Shown here piece after piece: positions 32,875-64,000 of a stretch of 64,000 nt of DNA. Source of the DNA: a virus; the IMG/VR virus record IMGVR_UViG_3300009388_000001, positions 1-64,000 of that record. The stretch is one strand, 5' to 3'. The first letter of the stretch is position 1; every line of letters starts with the position of its first letter. The translations under genes and the position numbers were made by a program. The notes beneath the pieces were generated by a model. That model worked only from the letters and a program-made list of their open reading frames with translations. It did no database searches and was not told the DNA's origin.

Positions 32875-32906
32875 TATTTTTTAAAAATCCTCCTATAAAA
32901 ATTAAA

Positions 32907-32944
32907 AAGACTTAAAAAGACTTTTAGAAGACTTTAAAAGACTT
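32907..32944. repeat. four helically phased AAGACTT repeats
   Basis: AAGACTT occurs at 32907, 32917, 32928 and 32938, giving spacings of 10, 11 and 10 nt. Confidence 0.8.
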
Positions 32945-32988
32945 CATTACAAAAAAACAGAATAAAATCAATTAATTTTATGTTAATT

Positions 32989-33092
32989 GGTCAATAGACG
33001 GCACACTTTTGCCGGTACATGGCATTATCTGGTCGGTAGACGGCACACTCCTGCCGGTATGTGGTATTGTTTCAGTCGATAGATGGCACTAT
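32989..33092 (+). repeat. iteron cluster 1 (three direct repeats, about 42-bp units)
   Basis: GGTCAATAGACGGCACACT (32989), GGTCGGTAGACGGCACACT (33031) and AGTCGATAGATGGCACTAT (33074). Confidence 0.8.
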
Positions 33093-33253
33093 TGTGTTTC
33101 CTTATATATTTTATTGGCTTGATCAAGAACTTCTGCAGACAAACATGCTCCTACCATATCAGTTAATCGACACACATCATGGGTATAATCAATTTTAAAT
33201 AAAAATTGCCTTATAACATTTCTTAATTTTGTTATTTTCTCTTTATCGTCCAT
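33089..33253 (-). CDS. hypothetical small protein between the iteron clusters
   Basis: 54 aa from the ATG at 33253, with AAGGAG upstream. Confidence 0.3.
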   Translation of the reverse strand: MDDKEKITKLRNVIRQFLFKIDYTHDVCRLTDMVGACLSAEVLDQANKIYKETQ

Positions 33254-33279
33254 ATAAAAATCTCCTTTAAAATCAATCA

Positions 33280-33349
33280 GGTCGATAGACGGCACACTCT
33301 AAACAGTCGATAGACGGCACAGTTTTTGTCGGTCGGTAGATGGCACAGT
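33280..33349 (+). repeat. iteron cluster 2 (three direct repeats, 25-26 bp spacing)
   Basis: GGTCGATAGACGGCACACT (33280), AGTCGATAGACGGCACAGT (33305) and GGTCGGTAGATGGCACAGT (33331). Confidence 0.8.
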
Positions 33350-33374
33350 TTACAAAATAAGTTTACTTATAAAA

Positions 33375-34319
33375 CTAAGTGTTCTTATTTTTATAAGTTA
33401 GTGTCTTTGCGTCACTTCCTTTTTTTCTGATTGTAACTATGTCGTCGCGACTTAGATCAAAAAATTCCAGATATTCTTTTTCCTGCAGTTCTTTCAGGCC
33501 AGTTTTGATAATTGCCCGGATGTGTTTACGTTCCTGATTTGTATTAATATTAATGGCTACAACCAGTTTATCGATATGAATTTGATAGTCTTTTCCTTGA
33601 GATTCCAGAAATCGATGAAGTGACTTGGATATCGGTCGTGTTAATGACATTCTAAAATTAACGTCGATAGATGTCACCATTGTTTCCAGATAAGCTTCTT
33701 TGAAGTAAGGATTCAAAGTGACCGTTATTTTGCCGGTTCCGGTTATACTGTAGCCGGTTAAAATGGTATTTCCCATTTTAATCATCGGATTTTTAGTCTT
33801 AATATTATCCCATACCTCAATAGTAACCAAAGTGCCGGTAAGCCGTTCTATGGCCTTGTCCATGGCCACATTAGTATTCTTGCCCCTGCCCTTCCCTATT
33901 GAATCACAAATGTCCTTACGGGACACTGTAAGCGTTAATGCCTGGCGTTTTTGAAAGAGACGAACCAATGCCAGCAATATATCTTCATCCTGAATGGACA
34001 ATTTAACGCCCTTGATAGACATTCTGCCCCATGAATTCTCCCATGTAAGTTCCTGGTATTCACGTTTTGCTTTGTCGCTGAGCGGAAAAAATGGAGATAA
34101 TCTGGTCATTTCAGTGGGAATGAAACTAAAAGTGGCCTGATCCGGTGGGCTGGGCCGGTTAAAAATGGCCTTTCTTACTTCATCGACAGTGCATTGCACG
34201 ATCTGGTTTTCTTCAACTACCTTTTTTACCGCATTGGAAAAAGCAGGATCCTGTGTTGCAAGTTCATAGCTTTTCTTTGCTTTGTCAATGATGCTCTGTA
34301 ATTCATCATCTATCGGCAT
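33375..34319 (-). CDS. plasmid-type replication initiator (RepA / RPA-family-like)
   Basis: Motif MTRLSPFFPLSDKAKREY...IQDEDILLALVRL, as in initiator protein A families. Iterons lie immediately adjacent. Confidence 0.55.
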   Translation of the reverse strand: MPIDDELQSIIDKAKKSYELATQDPAFSNAVKKVVEENQIVQCTVDEVRKAIFNRPSPPDQATFSFIPTEMTRLSPFFPLSDKAKREYQELTWENSWGRMSIKGVKLSIQDEDILLALVRLFQKRQALTLTVSRKDICDSIGKGRGKNTNVAMDKAIERLTGTLVTIEVWDNIKTKNPMIKMGNTILTGYSITGTGKITVTLNPYFKEAYLETMVTSIDVNFRMSLTRPISKSLHRFLESQGKDYQIHIDKLVVAININTNQERKHIRAIIKTGLKELQEKEYLEFFDLSRDDIVTIRKKGSDAKTLTYKNKNT

Positions 34320-34542
34320 GAAGTTCTTCCAGCTTTCTTATGATGTAATCATGCAGTCCCAAATCATCAGGATGCGAGGTTGCTGCGATTTTTAACTTTT
34401 TATGCAATTGTTTTGGAATATACAAAAGAAATGTTTTTACATTTTCCGGAGCAGATTTGGACTTTGTTTCTTTGGAATGCGCATCAATAACATTGAACAA
34501 TTTATTATCTTTCGCGTCTTCTTTCTTTAGTTTCATAACCAT
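34306..34542 (-). CDS. small ParG/RHH-like partition or regulatory protein
   Basis: About 78 aa. The segment FLLYIPKQLHKKLKIAA is compatible with a ribbon-helix-helix strand. It overlaps the end of parA. Confidence 0.4.
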   Translation of the reverse strand: MVMKLKKEDAKDNKLFNVIDAHSKETKSKSAPENVKTFLLYIPKQLHKKLKIAATSHPDDLGLHDYIIRKLEELHADR

Positions 34543-35174
34543 ATGCAGACTTCCTCCCATAATGCTTCAATTTCCCGGACTGCCTCCCGATCTTTATATT
34601 CGATAACGCCCTTCCCTTCCGCGAAACTGCGCTTGTATGCCTGTCTGTAATGCAAGATCGTACCTAACGAAAGCGCTCCTATGTTTTTAAGAATTTCTAC
34701 AGTTTCCTCCCCTATAATAGTATTTCGTACTTGTTGATTAAGCAAGCAAAATATATGCATTGCATTGGGACGCGCCTTTTGGATTTCCTGTGCAATCTTG
34801 ATTGTCCCCTGTGACGCCCACAGATCGGGCGCTGATGGCAATAAGGGAATCAGTACAACGTCAGCCGCGGCCATGGCCGATCGAAATGCCTTGGAATCCC
34901 TGCCCCCTGTATCGATAATGGCCATATCATAAGTTTCCTTGTATTTCTTAGGAAGCTCAGTATGAATGACATCCGAAGTAATATTCGCAACCAGAATTGT
35001 GGGTTTGATATCGCTTTCCGCCCGGACCAGAGCCACGTCAAGCGCAGTTTGTTGCAGATCGGCGTTAACAAGCAATGTTTTCAGCCCATCGCGCATGGCG
35101 GCAATCGCAAGATTGAACGCGATCGTGCTCTTGCCGGTACCGCCCTTCTGGTTGGCAACTGTGATAACTTTCAT
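34533..35174 (-). CDS. parA: ParA partition ATPase (small, type Ib-like)
   Basis: Deviant Walker A VANQKGGTGKST. 213 aa. Confidence 0.8.
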   Translation of the reverse strand: MKVITVANQKGGTGKSTIAFNLAIAAMRDGLKTLLVNADLQQTALDVALVRAESDIKPTILVANITSDVIHTELPKKYKETYDMAIIDTGGRDSKAFRSAMAAADVVLIPLLPSAPDLWASQGTIKIAQEIQKARPNAMHIFCLLNQQVRNTIIGEETVEILKNIGALSLGTILHYRQAYKRSFAEGKGVIEYKDREAVREIEALWEEVCIWL

Positions 35175-48167: not shown

Positions 48168-48286
48168 TGGTGGACATGGCCGGATTCGAACCGGCTTCTT
48201 CCGCATTCTCGTCAGATAGTCGGCTTGTACTTCGCCGTAGTTTCCGCTTACTGTAAGCGAATGCACTGCCATTATGCTACACGTCC
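48168..48286 (-). tRNA. tRNA-like gene of aberrant length (119 nt, encoded CCA)
   Basis: On the minus strand the acceptor stem is GGACGTG/CATGTCC, followed by U8-A9. The D arm is GCAT-AATGGCA-GTGC and the T arm is GCCGG-TTCGAAT-CCGGC, ending ACCA. There are 52 nt between the anticodon-stem halves TTCGC/GCGGA. Confidence 0.5.
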
Positions 48287-56451: not shown

Positions 56452-56838
56452 TTAAAACGGAACGCTATCATCAATACTAACGTCTTGATGTGTTTCGTTT
56501 TCTTCCTGTGCTTTCCTTGCGGAATCCAGCATTTTGATATTTGTAGCAACGATTTCGGTACTATACCGTTCAATATTATCCTTGTCAGTCCATTTGCGGG
56601 TTCGAATTTTACCTTCCACAAGTACGAGTCGTCCGGTTTTCAGGTAATCGTTAGCTATTTCTGCCAACTTGCTGTACGCAACGACACGGTGCCATTCTGT
56701 GCGGGCAACCTTTTCGCCGTTCTGGTTTTTATAGCTTTCATCTGTGGCAACTCTCATATTTGTTACCATTCCGCCGTCACCCATTAAGTTTGTCTGGGGA
56801 TCAGCGCCCAACCTTCCGATTAATGTTGCTCTGTTCAT
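56452..56838 (-). CDS. ssb: single-stranded DNA-binding protein
   Basis: N-terminus MNRATLIGRLGADPQ, an OB fold, and an acidic tail DDSVPF. Confidence 0.85.
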   Translation of the reverse strand: MNRATLIGRLGADPQTNLMGDGGMVTNMRVATDESYKNQNGEKVARTEWHRVVAYSKLAEIANDYLKTGRLVLVEGKIRTRKWTDKDNIERYSTEIVATNIKMLDSARKAQEENETHQDVSIDDSVPF

Positions 56839-57373: not shown

Positions 57374-58651
57374 TTATTCTTCACAACCGGCAAATTCGTT
57401 ATAGTCAGAAGAATAATCAAAGTCGATTTGCTCCGGCGGCATGGGGCTTTCTTCGCGTGCCGGAGCGTAGGCTTGTTTGCATTTTTTCCATGCGTCCCAG
57501 ATTACAGATTGTTCGTGAGCATTCAGCAGTGTCTTGCCGTTGCTGTATAACCAGTTAGCAACTTTATTTAGATTGCAGTTTTTATCGGCAAGGCGTTCCA
57601 GTGCTTTGAGAGCAATAGGACGTAATTTTGGCGACAGGTTGTGTTTCCTGCGGTTGTATTCATCCCAGATTACGGTTGTCTGGATTTTATTGAACTGCTT
57701 GTCGTTAAATAGCGCCTTGCCGATAGCTTTTAGCGAGGTAATATCCTTTGTTTCGCGGATTTGCTTTAAGATTTTTCTGAAAGCAATCGGTTGTCTATCT
57801 TCCCAGAGGATAGGTCGACCCAGAATCGGATCATTAATATCTCTGGGGTCATCGAGTTTGTGCCAGCCTTCGGATTGAATCATCTGAATATCAGCAGGAT
57901 TGTCAGCATCCACAGTCTTGATTGAGTTAGTATCTTCTTCGAGAGATTCAGTGATGTCGATGATTTTCGGCTCGCCCTCGTCGGTCACTAAGACCATTTG
58001 AGAAGCGAGATTTTCAAAATACCGGAATCCGGCATTGAATTTATCGGGAATGGACAGCCATTTTTCGAATGTACCGGCCATGCGCGGTGTTGTGTCGAGA
58101 ATTTTAAAGGCGAGGGCGAGCGTTTCAGCTTGCTCTATTGTGCAACCGAATTTCTTGCGTATACCGCCTGCGTGCCTGAACCATTCACGTTGAGACTTGA
58201 CTGTGTGCGGCAGAACCGCGTCGCCCTGCGCTGTCATGCCGGCTTCACGGTAGATTATTTTATCAAGACCGGATAATCCTTCGCCGCTTTGCATGTAGCG
58301 GATTCCGCGCTTATCTTTGAATATCTTGGCAGGCTTTGTTTCGCCCAGGTGTTCGGAAACCGCGAATGAACCTTCAAGGTGTGTGAAGTCGGGAATCATG
58401 ATTGCCCTGTGTTCGGGTACGGGAATATCGGAGTCGTATTCCATGAATTCAAGCGGCAGGGCGGGCTGCTCAGCGCGCAGTTTTGGTTCGAGTTTAGCGC
58501 GTCGCTCTGCGAAGTTGGCCGGATTGCGAATGTAGTCCCTATTGTCAAGCGCGTCGATCATGCCTTGCAGCATGTCGAAAGTGATCTGTAAATTGGGCTT
58601 TGCGTTTTCCTTGACGTAGACTGGTTTATCGGTGTAAATGAACTTAGCCAT
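57374..58651 (-). CDS. hypothetical protein
   Basis: 425 aa with GGAGAT upstream. No motif recognised. Confidence 0.5.
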   Translation of the reverse strand: MAKFIYTDKPVYVKENAKPNLQITFDMLQGMIDALDNRDYIRNPANFAERRAKLEPKLRAEQPALPLEFMEYDSDIPVPEHRAIMIPDFTHLEGSFAVSEHLGETKPAKIFKDKRGIRYMQSGEGLSGLDKIIYREAGMTAQGDAVLPHTVKSQREWFRHAGGIRKKFGCTIEQAETLALAFKILDTTPRMAGTFEKWLSIPDKFNAGFRYFENLASQMVLVTDEGEPKIIDITESLEEDTNSIKTVDADNPADIQMIQSEGWHKLDDPRDINDPILGRPILWEDRQPIAFRKILKQIRETKDITSLKAIGKALFNDKQFNKIQTTVIWDEYNRRKHNLSPKLRPIALKALERLADKNCNLNKVANWLYSNGKTLLNAHEQSVIWDAWKKCKQAYAPAREESPMPPEQIDFDYSSDYNEFAGCEE

Positions 58652-58767: not shown

Positions 58768-59082
58768 TTAAGTATTTCTTATCCATTCAATCGCTGCTTT
58801 AATCACGTCACCATGACAATCTTTTGGTTTACAACAACATATCAGGGCGATGTCTTCAATTGAGTTTGCAAGTTCATACAATGCTTTTCGCAGTTTCGAA
58901 CTTGGTTGGTTCAATTCTTTCCATAAATATTTCTTATAATTTTCAATAACTCTTTTCCTTTCATCATCACTATCATTCATCATTTTAAATATATTTCCAT
59001 AAACACTACCTCTCATAATATTAATATACTTAAATCCTTCAATCTTCTTATCTCTTACATTCACAACAATAATCTTATTCAT
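58768..59082 (-). CDS. DUF4326-like protein
   Basis: C-terminal LICCCKPKDCHGDVI matches the C.P..CHGD pattern I recall for DUF4326. ATG at 59082. Confidence 0.45.
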   Translation of the reverse strand: MNKIIVVNVRDKKIEGFKYINIMRGSVYGNIFKMMNDSDDERKRVIENYKKYLWKELNQPSSKLRKALYELANSIEDIALICCCKPKDCHGDVIKAAIEWIRNT

Positions 59083-59151
59083 AATCTTTTCTCCTTTCAA
59101 AAATAAAAGTAAAAGGCACCCAGCTTGAGCCAGATGCCTCCTTTGTAGATA

Positions 59152-59259
59152 TTAAAACACTGCGTAATCTTTACATTTCTTACATTTCTTCCTACAGTTA
59201 TAAATACAGGGTAAAGTCCAACGTTGTTTTCTCCGCTTTTTCGTTCTTCTCTTATTCAT
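59152..59259 (-). CDS. very basic Cys-rich micro-protein (below the ORF-track size cut-off)
   Basis: I read a 35-aa ORF, MNKRRTKKRRKQRWTLPCIYNCRKKCKKCKDYAVF. It is preceded by the same 34-bp SD and start cassette as the DUF4326 gene, and a hairpin plus T-tract follows it on the minus strand (about 59108-59140). Confidence 0.3.
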   Translation of the reverse strand: MNKRRTKKRRKQRWTLPCIYNCRKKCKKCKDYAVF

Positions 59260-59455
59260 AATCTTTTCTCCTTTCAAAAATAAATTAATAATTAAACTCC
59301 TCGCTCTCTTTACCCCACCTGTAGCGCAAAGCGGGATTCCTTGAAGTCAAGAGTCGGAATAAAAAATAATTACCTTTAAATTTATTGATGATATTATTTT
59401 TTATGGAGCCCGCAGGGTTGAAAAGAAATTAAAAGTTTTTTGCCTCGGTGAACGA

Positions 59456-59520
59456 GTAAAAAAGACAGCACATCGAGCAATGGAACAAAGTACGAAACCG
59501 AGATGTGCTGTCTTTTTTAC
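59456..59520. repeat. perfect 19-bp-stem hairpin
   Basis: GTAAAAAAGACAGCACATC pairs with GATGTGCTGTCTTTTTTAC across a 27-nt loop. It is nested in imperfect 25-nt outer arms (59418-59442 and 59527-59551). Confidence 0.85.
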
Positions 59521-59647
59521 TACCTTCAAAAAAGTTTTAATTTGTTTTCAAACTCTTTACTTTAAGGGTCTTGCGCTATAATTGGGGTACAGAGAGAGTT
59601 CCTTAAGGGTCTTTATGGAATGGAGGCTTTTCGCGGAATGGAATATA

Positions 59648-59708
59648 TAACAGACCAAAAAAGACAATTTATTATAGATTTACTCCGCTTGTCTTTTTTG
59701 GTCTGTTA
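59648..59708. repeat. perfect 20-bp-stem hairpin
   Basis: TAACAGACCAAAAAAGACAA pairs with TTGTCTTTTTTGGTCTGTTA across a 21-nt loop. It shares the AAAAAAGACA core with the first hairpin. Confidence 0.85.
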
Positions 59709-59924
59709 TGGTTGGCATTAGCGAAGCGGGCAGCCTCCAGTCTACCTTGATATTGTGTAATAGTTTGCAATCTGTGAAGTGTTATCCTTTGTTGTTTCAT
59801 ATATGTTAGATCATATGAATAGTGTTAAGCGTACGTATATCAGTTTATTACGTCTTTGATTGCTGACAAAATAGAAAAGATAATTTCCAGAAGTGTACAA
59901 ATGTAATGTATGTTAATCAATGAT

Positions 59925-60683
59925 ATTGAATGCATAGCGCATGGCAGCATAGGGAGTGTGAGATAATGAGGCAGGGCGGCGTAGTGACCCACCTCACAGC
60001 AGCATAACACGATATTCTAAAAGCGTAGCACTCTGCCGGTGTAGCGCCTTGCTTCCTGAATGCGTAGCATGATATTGCAAGATAGTGTTACTGCGATGTG
60101 CCGTGCATAATGAAGGCGAGGTCATGGCGCAAAGCGGCGTAGCTGCTAAGCGCCATGGGCGAGCCGTACCTTGCAGCAAGGCAGCATGAATGCTCTGCGC
60201 TTGCCGGCATGGAGCTGGGCAAGTGAAGGCGTGACTCTTGCGCGCGGAGCGCAATAGCAAGAGGCATGACTGAACGGCATAGTGCGCTAAGCAACAATGA
60301 ATGCTCTGCGCTTGCCGCCCAAAGCAACGTGGCTATGATGCGCTAAGGTAGGTCGGCAAGGAGCTGGGCAGCGAGGTCGCCGAGCTGCGGAGCGAAGCGG
60401 AGGGCGAGGCGGGCGAGCGTGTAGTGCATAGCGAAGCGTAGCCGCAGCATAGCACGTTGCCTCAATGAGATCACGTTGCCCTGCAGCAAAGAAGCATATC
60501 GCCAGCCCCTTAGCCGCCGCGCGGCGACAGGGGCAGTACCGCAATGAATAATGCGCGAAGTCGCTGAGATCTCGGCTGCATGAGCGAGAAGTCCATGCCC
60601 CAGAGCTACCCGGGGGCGGCTAAATATCCCAGTTCTATGAGGTAAGGTAGTGACCCTCTCTACAAGGCGCACTATTTTTTTTC
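59925..60683. ncRNA. GC-rich, hairpin-dense non-coding island (candidate large structured RNA)
   Basis: Stops occur in all three plus frames. Only mutually overlapping Ala/Arg-rich minus-strand ORFs are present. G+C that I counted is 46/60 at 60361-60420, against 12/60 at 60841-60900. There are many local GC hairpins, and the island ends at a T9 run (60675-60683). Confidence 0.3.
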
Positions 60684-60793
60684 AAAAAACTGTAAAAATT
60701 CCTGATCTCATTATGCTTTTATCTAACATCTTGTAAATATTAGCACTTTTCCCAACCACTTGATTTCCTTGTTTTTTTTCCACAGAATTCATT

Positions 60794-61167
60794 CCCCTAT
60801 ATAAGGAAGATTTTTTTAATAATTTATTTTAAAAGATCTGGATAGTATCTTATAGAGCGAAACTCATAATAATCATATTAATAATAAATAGTAACAAATT
60901 AGTGTGGATATAGTTGTTTTTATTAACTTAATAGTCATAATAATCAAAATAGATATATTTTTTAAATTCAGTACATATAAATCATAAAATATTTCCTTAT
61001 ATAGGGGAATCAAAAAACAGGGCTTAAAAATTTTTATCTGTATGATATGATTCAGATTTCCCCCATAATAATAATCGCGATTTTGATTATTATGATTATT
61101 ATGCTTTGCGCCTTGCTGCCCTGAACTATGCGGAATGATTCAAGTTGTTTGTATTAACTATCGGAGC
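60794..61167. repeat. AT-rich structured repeat element, copy B
   Basis: It shares blocks with copy A at the same offsets: CCCCTATATAAGGAA, TCTTATAGAGCGAAACT, TTATTAACTTAATAGTCATAATAAT, ATAGATATATTT, TTCCTTATATAGGGGAAT and TCGCGATTTTGATTATTATG. Copy B carries one insertion of about 49 bp. Confidence 0.8.
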
Positions 61168-61316
61168 GCAAAACGGCCGGTTGCTATTATGGACGTCTCT
61201 TTTTTCTATTTAACGTAGCATTATTGTTTAGGATTTTTTATAATAATTACTCATTTTCCGGTGATTTCCGGCTGGCATGATCTTTGCTTTTTCGGGATTT
61301 GAATTCATTATGCAAT

Positions 61317-61519: not shown

Positions 61520-62482
61520 ATGAATGAAATTACCGAAAACACAAAATCTCTAAAAATTGATCAGATCGACTGGCAGCGGCGCGAGAAGTTGGCTTTATCC
61601 AGGCTAACCGATAAGCAGAAATTATTCTGTGAGGAATATGTCCGGTCTTTCGATAAGATCAAGGCTATGAAAGCGGGCGGTTATGCCTTGCCTAAGCATA
61701 CAACCGGCGGAGCGCAACGGAAATTAATCGAACAGAATTTTGAGAAGATTATGTCGAGTGAAGCCGTACAGGAATACATTCTGCTGTTAAAACAGGATGT
61801 GGCTTCGCGGCTCGGTGTTTCCGTCGATGATATAATCGATGAATATAAATTAATGGCTTTCGCGAACATAGAAGATTATGTCGAGTGGGATAAAAACGGT
61901 TTTACTAAATTTAAAGATTCAAAGAAACTCACCAGGGCGCAAAAAGCCGGAATTCTTGAGATTACCGAAACGACCACGGTAAAGGGTACTACAATTAAGA
62001 TAAAACTGCATCCCAAGCAGCCGGCGCTGGACCGCCTGTTTGAAATCCTGAAAGAGCTTGAAGAATTTGAATCAAGTCATAAGGGTCAGGCCAATATTTC
62101 ACAGACACAAATTAATGTCATGTTGGGAGATCCACTGATGCGCAGGGCTATTGAGCTTATTGCCACAAAGATGTTTCCCGAACAGATCAAATTAGTCGGA
62201 GTGGATAAAAACCAGATTGAATTCAACAAGCATCTCGACAAGATTATGCATAAATTGGAGGCTACCAGTGGAAGAAAAGGCACGCGAAGCTTTGGAGAGG
62301 CGCAACTCCCGGCGCCGGAAAGCACAGGAGGAAAAGAAAAAGACGGAGGAAATCCTGCAGAAGTCATCAACAACATCGGAGGAAAAAAAGAAGTGTCTCA
62401 AGACGAAAGCTGCGGGGCTGCCGCCGCCGATACTGAACCCGCAGATCGATACGATTTCAATGGGATACGACCGGTTTCTTAG
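61520..62482 (+). CDS. terS: terminase small subunit
   Basis: N-terminal LSRLTDKQKLFCEEYVRSFDKIKAMKAGGY is typical of Terminase_2-type small subunits. It lies directly upstream of terL and overlaps it. Confidence 0.7.
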   Translation: MNEITENTKSLKIDQIDWQRREKLALSRLTDKQKLFCEEYVRSFDKIKAMKAGGYALPKHTTGGAQRKLIEQNFEKIMSSEAVQEYILLLKQDVASRLGVSVDDIIDEYKLMAFANIEDYVEWDKNGFTKFKDSKKLTRAQKAGILEITETTTVKGTTIKIKLHPKQPALDRLFEILKELEEFESSHKGQANISQTQINVMLGDPLMRRAIELIATKMFPEQIKLVGVDKNQIEFNKHLDKIMHKLEATSGRKGTRSFGEAQLPAPESTGGKEKDGGNPAEVINNIGGKKEVSQDESCGAAAADTEPADRYDFNGIRPVS

Positions 62483-64000
62483 CCAACTGCCCTCTGATAC
62501 ATGGAAATATCTGCCTCATACCTTTGCTGCAAAAATGAGTGAAGGTAAATGGATTGCTTTTAATTATCTGGTAATACTCAGCCATATAATCGCCTCGGTT
62601 ATTGTGCGCGGGGGAGGGCGCATTCTTGTTTCTATCCCGCCGCGGCACGGTAAAAGCTGGTTTATATCGCAGTGGATCCCCGTGTGGTTTTTATCAATGT
62701 GGCCAGGATTGAAAGTAATTCTGACAACTTACGAAGCGAACTTCGCGGCAACATGGGGAAGGCGCGTCCGGAATATTATCAAAGAATCGGGGCATGAGGT
62801 AAAACTGCAGCTATCCGACGATTCCACAGCTTCGAATAACTGGGAATTGACGACCGGCGGCGGCATGATTACCGCTGGCGTCGGAGGACCGATAACAGGG
62901 AAGGGCGGTCATTTGCTGCTTTGCGATGATCCGCATAAAAACTGGCAGGAAGCGCAATCGGATACTATCAGGGAGTCAATTAAGGACTGGTATGATTCCA
63001 CTTTCTACACACGTGCCGAACCTGGCGCGACGATAGTTATATTGCACTGTATGACTGGCGACACTCCGGTATTAATGGCGGATGGCACAGAAAAAAACCT
63101 AAAAGATATCAGGGTTGGAGATTTGGTAGCGACATATAAAAAAGGTCGTCTCGGAATATCAAAAGTTGAAAATTGGATAAATAATGGTCTTAGTAAAGTC
63201 TTAACAATTAAGACGACTTCTGGTATTGTTGTTAAAGCAAACGAGAGACACCCATTTCTTGTCAATAAAGAAGGAGTTATAAAATGGAAACGAGTGAAAG
63301 ACTTACGCCCGGGCCACGAAATTTACCGGGTCAATGGGGAAAATGGAAAGGTAAGACATGCAAGTCAGAAGGATGTGATAAACCGGCGTTTTGCCGAGGA
63401 TACTGCAATCACCACTATAATGCAAAACGATGGGCTGATGGAATCCGTCCGCCATCTTGCAATACGATGTCGAGATTTATTGGTAAACTTAAATATCGCT
63501 ATGGCATCTCATTGGAACAATATAATCAAATGTATAAAGCGCAAAATGGATGCTGCCCTATCTGTGGTCGACATGCAAGTCAGGCGAATAACCCATCCAG
63601 TTGGCGCGAAGTCTTGTGCGTCGATCACTGCCACGATACGGGAAAAGTACGAGGCTTGCTCTGCAACGACTGCAACCTGCTCCTTAAACGATACGCAACA
63701 ACAAATATCTTCGAAAAAGCGATTAATTACATCAGACTTCATTCTGGAAAAAATTGAATCAATTACCTATTCGGGAATTGAGGATGTGTTTGATGTCCAA
63801 ATTGCGGAAACCGAAAATTTTATTGCTAATGGTTTGGTGAGTCATAATACCCGCTGGCACGAAGACGACCTGATCGGGTATTTGATGCGTGAGAAAATAG
63901 AGGATGGGTATTTTCATATCAGGATGCCGGCGATTGCCGAAGATGATGACGATATTCTCGGCCGTAAACCCGGCGAGGCGCTTTGTCCGGAGCGTTATGA
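62460..64000 (+). CDS. terL: terminase large subunit, 5' part, interrupted by an intein (runs off the window)
   Basis: I checked the frame codon by codon and it is open from the ATG at 62460 to nt 64000. Walker A VSIPPRHGKSW, Walker B HLLLCDDPH, and the motif IVILH|intein|TRWHEDDLIGY. It is absent from the ORF track because it has no stop in the window. Confidence 0.8.
   Translation, partial: MGYDRFLSQLPSDTWKYLPHTFAAKMSEGKWIAFNYLVILSHIIASVIVRGGGRILVSIPPRHGKSWFISQWIPVWFLSMWPGLKVILTTYEANFAATWGRRVRNIIKESGHEVKLQLSDDSTASNNWELTTGGGMITAGVGGPITGKGGHLLLCDDPHKNWQEAQSDTIRESIKDWYDSTFYTRAEPGATIVILHCMTGDTPVLMADGTEKNLKDIRVGDLVATYKKGRLGISKVENWINNGLSKVLTIKTTSGIVVKANERHPFLVNKEGVIKWKRVKDLRPGHEIYRVNGENGKVRHASQKDVINRRFAEDTAITTIMQNDGLMESVRHLAIRCRDLLVNLNIAMASHWNNIIKCIKRKMDAALSVVDMQVRRITHPVGAKSCASITATIREKYEACSATTATCSLNDTQQQISSKKRLITSDFILEKIESITYSGIEDVFDVQIAETENFIANGLVSHNTRWHEDDLIGYLMREKIEDGYFHIRMPAIAEDDDDILGRKPGEALCPERY
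63048..63848 (+). mobile_element. intein (Hint domain) inserted in terL
   Basis: It begins CMTGDTPVLMADG, has a block-B-like KANERHPFLV, and ends NFIANGLVSHN followed by +1 Thr. It is 801 nt (267 codons) in the terL frame. Confidence 0.75.
63284..63757 (+). CDS. endonuclease VII / HNH-type homing endonuclease, nested in the intein in a different reading frame
   Basis: AAGGAG lies 8 nt upstream of the ATG at 63284. Motifs: Zn finger CKSEGCDKPAFCRGYCNHHY, then CCPICGR...LCVDHCHDTGKVRGLLCNDCN. The ORF start 63284 falls at codon position 3 of the terL frame, which begins at 62460. Confidence 0.75.
   Translation: METSERLTPGPRNLPGQWGKWKGKTCKSEGCDKPAFCRGYCNHHYNAKRWADGIRPPSCNTMSRFIGKLKYRYGISLEQYNQMYKAQNGCCPICGRHASQANNPSSWREVLCVDHCHDTGKVRGLLCNDCNLLLKRYATTNIFEKAINYIRLHSGKN

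Follow-up and report, generated by a model that had tools for sequence, protein, structure and literature searches.

In the 64,000-nucleotide stretch of viral DNA analysed here (positions 1 to 64,000 of IMG/VR record IMGVR_UViG_3300009388_000001; 'the window' in the following), a GC-rich island at positions 59925-60683 lies inside a 2.3 kb gap without genes that separates a leftward early gene from terS, the gene of the terminase small subunit. The genome around the window is that of a siphovirus-like phage of about 73.6 kb. The island is a family-specific, strand-asymmetric and fast-evolving array of hairpin modules and can be placed in no described family. In the reading that we put forward, to which we assign somewhat less than an even chance, its + strand would work next to the packaging site in the form of single-stranded DNA, either in the protection of a 3' end or as an initiation signal. 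An initial annotation of the window, made from the letters of the sequence, had taken the island for a candidate large structured RNA. This description was right in that the region is non-coding, is conserved in position and contains covarying stem-loops; a single large conserved architecture was not found, and the RNA nature was not borne out. The part of the island that carries the modules and the motif copies treated below are the following.

59925-60607, + strand: island body, made of degenerate stem-loop modules of about 110-130 nt and purine-rich linkers, delimited by composition, internal repeats and the lack of a coding signal
60023, 60062, 60137, 60244, 60387, 60392, 60431 and 60436 (start positions), + strand: eight copies of the heptamer GCGNAGC

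A heptamer motif on one strand of the island

The recurring short motifs that had been noted in the island (GCATAGC, GCGTAGC) are real and stronger than first described. They come down to one motif, GCGNAGC, with eight copies on the + strand of the island and none on the - strand (0.38 copies expected; P ~8e-9). A ninth copy is found near the island, at 59721, and the other 63 kb of the window contain only six copies on the + strand. All copies of the array lie left of the conserved terminal block with which the island ends. The same bias was observed in most relatives, with ratios of + to - strand copies of 13:1, 8:1 and 5:0. When 2 Mb of unrelated sequence were examined for comparison, a density of at least five copies per 800 nt on one strand was seen only in the loci of this family and in two very GC-rich contigs.

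The central position of the heptamer is free. Over 40 copies from eight islands, it is A in 13, G in 11, C in 8 and T in 8. The flanks are less variable, with A at position -1 in 27 of the 40 copies and G at position +7 in 25, which gives the extended consensus A-GCGNAGC-G; a spacing of 5 nt is the most frequent one between successive AGCG cores. Since A and G cannot pair, the flanks of those copies do not extend the stem, and such copies can serve only as a linear motif or as a 2-bp hairpin, a form that is stable in DNA. In one lineage (L123/L001), the island of about 1.1 kb holds a single GCGNAGC, and other motifs, such as GCCTGGCAC(AG) and TGCCCTT, are repeated on the + strand only; GCCTGGC occurs there six times on the + strand and not at all on the - strand. 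The oriented motif may thus differ between lineages.

The island copies have the sequence by which a known DNA mini-hairpin is defined, with any base at N. The oligonucleotide d(GCGNAGC) has been described as an "extraordinarily stable" DNA mini-hairpin, with melting temperatures of 70-76 C, ranked A>G>C>T by the central base (PMC13037366). It resists 3' exonuclease and is a poor binder of single-stranded DNA-binding protein (SSB) (PMC13037366). Natural sites are found in the complementary-strand origins of G4, St-1 and alpha3, in ssiA of RSF1010 and, as GCGGAGC, in the promoter of the N4 virion RNA polymerase (vRNAP) (PMC13037366).

Stem-loop modules with compensatory substitutions

Two types of stem-loop module, M1 and M2, were defined in the island body and found again in relatives. 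The corresponding features of the window are listed here together with a repeat pair that marks two adjacent modules.

60111-60170, + strand: M1, with the 5' flank GGCGAGGT, an 8-bp stem CATGGCGC/GCGCCATG, an apical GC-GTA-GC triloop hairpin and the 3' flank GGCGAGCC
60366-60425, + strand: weak second M1-like copy, with AGCGAGGT, a short stem around GCGGAGC and GCGAAGC, then GGCGAGCG; 9.7 bits and E ~6 with model R1 over its full length, suggestive only
60500-60540, + strand: M2, a two-tier hairpin GCCCCT-TA-GCCGC-CGC-GCGGC-GAC-AGGGGC
60186-60206 and 60297-60317, + strand: exact 21-nt direct repeat pair, marking two adjacent modules

The modules are built on a common plan, in which purine-rich flanks (AGCGAGGT on the 5' side, GGCGAGCG or GAGCGG on the 3' side) enclose a stem that opens with C-G and can otherwise vary freely. 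At the apex, most modules have a GNA triloop with GC/GC closure, and further GCGNAGC heptamers lie between the modules. The covariance model R1 was built from two copies of M1, and hits were aligned to the model; alignment with MAFFT misplaced stems of unequal length. With R1, full-length + strand copies were found in five further lineages (L124, L131, L129, L255/L259 and L266). In the basal stem of M1, pairing is kept in 48 of 51 cells, and each position shows 2-4 different pair types. A descriptor of M1-like elements gave 21 matches on the + strand and one on the - strand of the family loci. In 2 Mb of control loci, searched on both strands, the descriptor matched 14 times, mostly in contigs of about 70% G+C.

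Module M2 recurs in L257, in L135, where it forms four tandem units, and in L266. Over its 13 pairs, 94.9% of the cells are paired, and two-sided changes are observed in five pairs. The covariation score was 0.42 compared with 0.15 in shuffles, a value that was reached by none of 500 shuffles; as for M1, the sequences are few and partly tandem copies, and the alignment was fitted to the model. The stems of the modules are held by compensatory substitutions, as would be seen for a structured RNA or for a motif of single-stranded DNA.

Folding energies were compared with those of dinucleotide-shuffled sequences. The + strand of the relatives' islands folds 2.7-6.5 standard deviations better than the shuffles in six of seven cases and 2.0 standard deviations better in the seventh. 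For the island of the window, the + strand is only slightly better than its shuffles (z = -2.2 and -0.8 in two runs). The z-score of the - strand is weaker than that of the + strand in seven of the eight islands.

The individual hairpins named in the initial annotation exist, at coordinates that had to be shifted by 1-2 bases (60200-60223, 60237-60261 and 60505-60534). The repeats that it listed are present as given: ATGAATGCTCTGCGCTTGCCG at 60186 and 60297, GGAGCTGGGCA at 60211 and 60360, and GTAGTGACCC at 59981 and 60647. Several more specific interpretations of the hairpins were rejected. GNA or GNRA loops are not a general rule, as the loops of perfect hairpins are diverse and a second class of hairpins carries C-rich triloops. 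On inspection of the sequence, the GA-flanked hairpins lack the matching C-stem of a K-turn, and TRAP-like (N)AG repeats at a 5-nt step form runs of only 2-3 units. No regular CRISPR array was detected with TRF and a repeat finder; this interpretation is also contradicted by the modules, because they keep their flanks and vary their stems, the reverse of CRISPR.

Shared layout and variable content of the island in relatives

A search with the terS protein yielded 33 relatives at 39-64% identity, and contig look-ups together with two pattern scans led to 13 distinct related loci. GenBank phages gave no DNA match to the island. All loci with enough upstream sequence, except for one, have the same layout: a GC-rich island is followed by a block of about 85 nt with a T run, an AT trough and then terS. 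The exception is L231, where a gene begins about 160 nt from the terminal block in place of the island, and the block and the terS region are kept. The islands of the relatives are 15-20 points above their own genome in G+C content and range in length from about 0.3 kb to more than 1 kb.

The content of the islands is far less conserved than their position. With MAFFT, blastn and tblastx, alignment between islands was confined to the terminal ~85 nt and some short modules. The search for homologues and covariation suggested with the structured-RNA proposal thus gave relatives and stem covariation in two modules, and failed to give an alignment of the whole island. The modules of the window are degenerate, and those of other lineages form tandem units of their own, with 96 nt x 2.3 in L126, 62 nt x 3-4 in L135 and about 70 nt x 2 in L257. 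Among three near-identical strains, the differences are almost confined to the last 350 nt of the island, and several of these changes fall on N or make or break a GCGNAGC.

Scanning viral contigs with the 20-mer described below and with a pattern of the terminal block recovered a single relative, already known, and a looser block pattern gave mostly chance matches and two true ones. In metagenomes and genomes scanned with the terS alignment, besides a known relative, only distant terS genes (at most 37% identity) without islands were found.

In many contigs with terS (L127, L128, L129, L130, L132, L133, L135, L255, L256, L257 and L259), the assembly ends inside the island, 260-1100 nt upstream of the block; L255, L257 and L259 begin at a similar CCCTGC sequence. 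These ends are likely assembly breaks at internal or inverted repeats, or the result of strain variation. The islands break metagenome assemblies of this phage family.

Composition and coding potential

The island has 57.2% G+C, compared with 40.8% for the whole window. The local counts on which it had been singled out are exact: 46/60 at 60361-60420, 36/60 at 60181-60240 and 29/60 at 60001-60060, with 12/60 in the AT-rich flank at 60841-60900. The assignment as non-coding was also confirmed for both strands. On the + strand, stop codons are spread evenly over the three frames. This holds for TAG, TAA and TGA, and a reassigned stop codon therefore rescues no gene there. On the - strand, the open reading frames (ORFs) overlap each other, are rich in Ala, Arg and Leu and are not conserved in the relatives, so a - strand gene was rejected. 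Comparison of eight islands by tblastx showed no frame-consistent conservation; the matches are short and fall on both strands and in all frames.

As an alternative, the initial annotation had considered a fragment of foreign high-GC DNA or of a gene. This was rejected because the relatives, all but one of those with enough upstream sequence, carry islands with the same motifs at the same locus; no ORF is conserved among them.

Search for known RNA families and transcription signals

A match to GOLLD, ROOL, HEARO, OLE or another known family had been suggested as a check of the RNA proposal and was not obtained, neither at the gathering threshold nor at E<=10. With Rfam 15 at the gathering threshold, the only hit in the whole window was a tRNA at 48171-48286; at E<=10 in the region 59300-61300, nothing was found inside the island, and the loci of nine relatives gave no Rfam match. 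Matches to miRNA models near 59647-59709 are spurious and reflect a perfect hairpin at that place. The island is not a single large ornate RNA of the GOLLD or ROOL type, since the islands cannot be aligned, consist of lineage-specific tandem modules, vary between strains and are absent in L231.

A promoter-like site upstream of the island, TTGATT-N17-GATAAT at 59856-59884 on the + strand, is present as had been noted, and its value as a promoter is weak: it matches at 9 of 12 positions, and in a scan of 2.6 kb matches of this quality occurred 18 times compared with 8 expected. No promoter at the left edge of the island is conserved in the relatives. A T run does close the island, with a length of T8 (60675-60682) and not T9. 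No canonical terminator was found at the island end, and the T run cannot be counted as one because 15-18 nt separate it from the nearest hairpin.

If the stems were maintained in RNA, G·U pairs would be expected to exceed A·C by far among the mismatches. With minimum stem lengths of 9, 10 and 12 pairs, the observed ratios of G·T to A·C are 55:45, 10:6 and 3:1, respectively, so that the RNA signature was not seen; the small numbers make this negative a weak one. Perfect pairing over 13-18 bp is seen in many of the stems.

Terminal block and AT-rich region in front of terS

The island ends with a conserved block that leads into an AT-rich control region.

60608-60683: conserved terminal block ending in T8, with the invariant parts ACC.GG, AA.ATC, ACC and CAA..CGCA..A.TTTTT
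60690-61110: AT-rich control region, 17-30% G+C, with CATAATAATCA-type repeats in both orientations and long inverted repeats
60776 and 60903: DnaA-box-like sites TTTTCCACA and TGTGGATAT, one forward and one reverse, with matching positions in relatives
60788-60820 with 60981-61013: 33-nt inverted repeat in the AT-rich region
61124-61143: 20-mer AACTATGCGGAATGATTCAA, identical in the window and in a relative of 54% identity

The terminal block of about 85 nt could be aligned in 11 relatives, and RNAalifold found no consensus pairs in it. Phased A/T tracts follow directly behind the block. Comparison with L001 showed that the AT-rich part is well conserved in sequence. The block may be a DNA site and perhaps part of the packaging site (pac) or of a region bound by terS. 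The AT-rich region is probably a pac or terS-binding site, a lytic origin, or both. A replication origin at the island locus was considered and rejected, as the locus has only one forward and one reverse DnaA-box-like site, and a plasmid-type Rep gene with six iterons is located at 32.9-34.3 kb. A lytic origin may be located in the AT-rich region.

Genome setting of the locus

The genes and elements around the island and those of a plasmid-type replicon elsewhere in the window are as follows.

58768-59100, - strand: DUF4326-like gene, the last leftward gene and left edge of the gap; phrog_464, with counterparts carrying PF14216 at the same place in relatives
59455-59521: perfect inverted repeat of 20 nt (100% complementary) with A6/T6 flanks, resembling a bidirectional terminator
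59647-59709: perfect inverted repeat of 21 nt (100% complementary) with A6/T6 tracts, likewise terminator-like and situated between the island and the early genes
61520-62482, + strand: terS, terminase small subunit gene and first rightward late gene; phrog_51 and phrog_2606, with homologues carrying PF03592
26753-28612: gene of a primase-polymerase-like protein of 619 residues; phrog_2478 match, no Pfam match
32881-32942: AT-rich repeat of the plasmid-type replicon
32990-33352: six 21-nt iterons GTCGATAGACGGCACAC, beside the Rep gene
33375-34319, - strand: Rep initiator gene of plasmid type (Pfam RPA and Rep3_N)
34533-35174: ParA-like gene of the replicon

Genes on the + strand include those for the tape-measure protein and a J-like tail fibre. 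A leftward gene block at 24-59 kb encodes helicases, the primase-polymerase-like protein, an SSB, a methyltransferase and ParA/ParB-like proteins. The plasmid-type replicon spans 32881-35174 as a whole and is about 25-27 kb away from the island. Based on the plasmid-type Rep initiator and the six iterons, the phage is probably a phage-plasmid. Homologues of terS are found in Clostridium and Bacillus phages, and those of Rep in plasmids of Desulfovibrionales. No RNA polymerase of the N4 type is encoded in the window.

Some further observations were made on the neighbouring genes. The ORFs 58768-59100 and 59152-59277, both on the - strand, share their first nine residues (MKGEKIMNK), and the sequence upstream of both is identical (TTCATAATCTTTTCTCCTTTCAAAAATAAA as read on the + strand); there appears to be a duplicated gene start in 58768-59277. 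Selfish elements concentrate in the terminase region: an endonuclease VII-like gene stands right behind terS (63284-63757), and the gene of the terminase large subunit carries inteins or LAGLIDADG inserts in several relatives (L122, L127, L131, L132, L135 and L257). The SSB gene (56452-56838, - strand) adjoins the gene of a 425-residue protein (57374-58651, - strand) with no PHROG or Pfam match. Neighbours of phage SSB genes are often recombinases. The tRNA gene mentioned above (48171-48286, - strand; 50.9 bits with the Rfam tRNA model) is absent from the ARAGORN output; its anticodon loop is enlarged by about 45 nucleotides, perhaps through an intron or an insert.

Possible roles of the island

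The sequences show the anatomy of the modules, their bias to one strand, the covarying stems, the synteny and the variable content of the islands; we infer a DNA form, the position of a terminase cut and a protective or priming role. The proposed cut would lie at the terminal block or in the AT-rich region before terS, with packaging proceeding rightward. On the double-strand end that would be left on the left side, the + strand would be the 3'-ended strand. Resection of this end by a host helicase-nuclease or exonuclease would leave the + strand to fold into nuclease-resistant hairpins. Such hairpins, which would exclude SSB and resist exonuclease, might then buffer the end of the concatemer or genome. 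In a second version with single-stranded DNA, the modules would be initiation signals like ssiA or the N4 promoters, and synthesis with the + strand as template would proceed leftward, towards the early and replication genes. The multiplicity of the modules, their fast turnover and their dispensability fit a role in end buffering. Taken more broadly, the island could represent an undescribed class of one-strand arrays with the order flank, variable stem and GNA triloop beside a packaging site. As single-stranded DNA or RNA, such arrays would neutralise a host nuclease or defence factor or start synthesis. We advance this only tentatively; fast turnover of modules is expected for a locus involved in an arms race.

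Part of the evidence leans towards DNA, namely the free N, the non-pairing flanks, the missing excess of G·T, the lack of a conserved promoter or terminator and the unstructured conserved block. Other evidence, consisting of the GC enrichment, the better z-scores of the + strand and the upstream terminator-like hairpins, leans towards RNA. Several points weigh against a role as single-stranded DNA. We infer both the single-strandedness of the + strand and the position of the terminase cut. The enriched motif is not a known Chi, and AGCGG, in turn, is only at chance level in the island of the window. Hairpins are not known to block AddAB or RecBCD. Better folding of the + than of the - strand relative to shuffles, in seven of eight islands, is also compatible with RNA, and a GC-enriched intergenic region in an AT-rich genome is a classic signature of structured RNAs. 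The version with initiation signals faces additional difficulties. The two terminator-like hairpins between the island and the early genes are contrary to its promoter form, the many copies of the module count against it, and the plasmid-type origin with iterons 27 kb away weakens the idea of an origin at the locus.

A modular non-coding RNA transcribed rightward, in the sense of terS, is a possible alternative, somewhat less probable in our view. It could be a separate transcript of some 0.8 kb or belong to the late operon as a long leader, and its stem-loops would display the purine motifs AGCGAGG, GAGCGG and GCGNAGC as a multivalent platform that binds or titrates a host or phage protein. 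Sponge and decoy RNAs with repeated motifs, such as CsrB/RsmZ and the ToxI-type repeats, typically have tandem modules of changing copy number, and the tandem modules of the islands vary in the same way. The elevated G+C content in every relative (15-20 points), the covarying stems of two modules and the + strand z-scores of -2.0 to -6.5 in the relatives, stronger than those of the - strand in seven of eight islands, would all be explained. A transcription unit could be delimited by the terminator-like hairpins and the promoter-like site upstream of the island and by the U run at its end, but the promoter is not conserved in the relatives, and the U run at 15-18 nt from the nearest hairpin is no canonical terminator. 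Rfam is without a match, G·U does not exceed A·C in the stems, and most GCGNAGC flanks do not pair, with a 2-bp hairpin being meaningless in RNA.

Of the explanations with less weight, an array of double-stranded DNA sites bound by terS, by a ParB-like protein or by some other organiser is unlikely; such sites would work in support of pac or in the manner of a centromere. It would agree with the single orientation of the motif copies, the ParA-like and ParB-like proteins encoded by the phage and the contiguity of the island with the conserved block and the AT-rich repeats before terS. AGCG cores commonly 5 nt apart would, however, face opposite sides of the duplex, and stem arms that co-vary without a fixed sequence imply pairing of the nucleic acid rather than a fixed protein site. 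Moreover, L231 does without an island yet keeps the block and the terS region, and the par and rep genes with the iterons are 25 kb distant. About as little room is left for a neutral minisatellite, that is, a functionless GC-rich stretch that expands and contracts through slippage and duplication at a tolerant site of a genome packaged by headful; we judge it improbable. Tandem repeats, changes in copy number, the frequent assembly breaks, the length of about 0.3 to more than 1 kb and the absence from one relative are what such a stretch would produce. It does not account for modules, compensatory stems and conserved flanks common to lineages whose terS proteins are only 43-60% identical, nor for the extreme strand bias of one 7-mer that recurs in most lineages. 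That the island is coding or foreign DNA, whether as a gene on the - strand or with a reassigned stop, as a pseudogene or as a foreign high-GC fragment, is very improbable. Four overlapping - strand ORFs of 79-109 residues exist, and one - strand frame has just two stops in the island. Against these stand the even stops of all + strand frames, the short and scattered tblastx matches between eight islands and the Ala/Arg/Leu-rich composition of the products, which is typical of GC-rich non-coding DNA. A foreign fragment is also at odds with the islands at the same locus in relatives, and no match came from GenBank phages.

Comparison with known systems

Long GC-enriched non-coding regions with many local helices are also seen in GOLLD, ROOL, HEARO and OLE. 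Unlike these, the island gives no covariance-model match, has no conserved multi-helix architecture and is built from tandem lineage-specific modules. With the sponge and decoy RNAs (CsrB/RsmZ, ToxI and phage pseudo-ToxI), it shares tandem stem-loop units with a short motif, a fast change of copy number and low conservation outside the motif. It differs from them in its irregular units, in the lack of a GGA-in-loop pattern and in that no partner protein or toxin gene is evident. A sponge of the CsrA type was rejected, as the island has too few GGA triplets (about six, counted by eye). REP/BIME elements are likewise intergenic clusters of GC-rich imperfect palindromes, often preceded by GTAG. 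In the island, by contrast, the units have one orientation and are confined to one phage locus, and no RAYT-type transposase was present among the ORFs scanned.

In its position, the island resembles the terminal Chi clusters of some lambdoid phages. LLS and MD8 carry 20-32 Chi sites in active orientation at the cos-side end, with a geometry like that of lambda, and these clusters are concentrated towards the right genome end (PMC12315714). In both cases, many short, G-rich and oriented copies lie left of the packaging site. The Chi copies are on the strand whose 3' end faces the cut, and the same would hold here for the putative cut position. Like the island, the Chi clusters are accessory and vary between lineages. 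Unlike Chi, the island motif is not a known Chi sequence, has a free middle base and is partly palindromic, and the island is a dedicated non-coding, hairpin-rich stretch. Chi-like motifs are AGCGG in B. subtilis and GAAGCGG in S. aureus (PMC8022716). As a Chi candidate, AGCGG was rejected, with two copies in the island of the window, which is about chance level. No Chi function is claimed for the island motif.

In its anatomy, the island comes closest to the mini-hairpin elements of the G4, St-1 and alpha3 origins, ssiA and the N4 promoters (PMC13037366). The heptamer is identical, its N is free and it is strand-specific; a phage context and an adjacent control region are also common to both. 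In ssiA and the N4 promoters as in M1, a single-stranded flank is followed by a stem that opens with C-G and an apex closed as a GNA loop. These signals are recognised by a primase or an RNA polymerase, and comparable recognition might be at work here. The mini-hairpin elements are known as single sites or groups of 2-3, whereas the arrays described here have 8-13 copies, vary between strains and are 0.3 to more than 1 kb long.

Should the island function as DNA, this would represent the first use in bulk of the mini-hairpin motif in nature, with 8-13 oriented copies in a phage with double-stranded DNA, and a hairpin-based counterpart of the terminal Chi clusters that manage host helicase-nucleases. 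If it acts as RNA, it would be a modular, fast-evolving phage RNA with a searchable unit. Either way, the motif, consisting of AGCGAGGT, a stem, a GNA apex and GGCGAGCG, together with GCGNAGC, provides a handle for metagenome searches and simple biochemistry. The closest described relatives of the island are the GNA mini-hairpin initiation signals with respect to anatomy and the terminal Chi clusters with respect to position.

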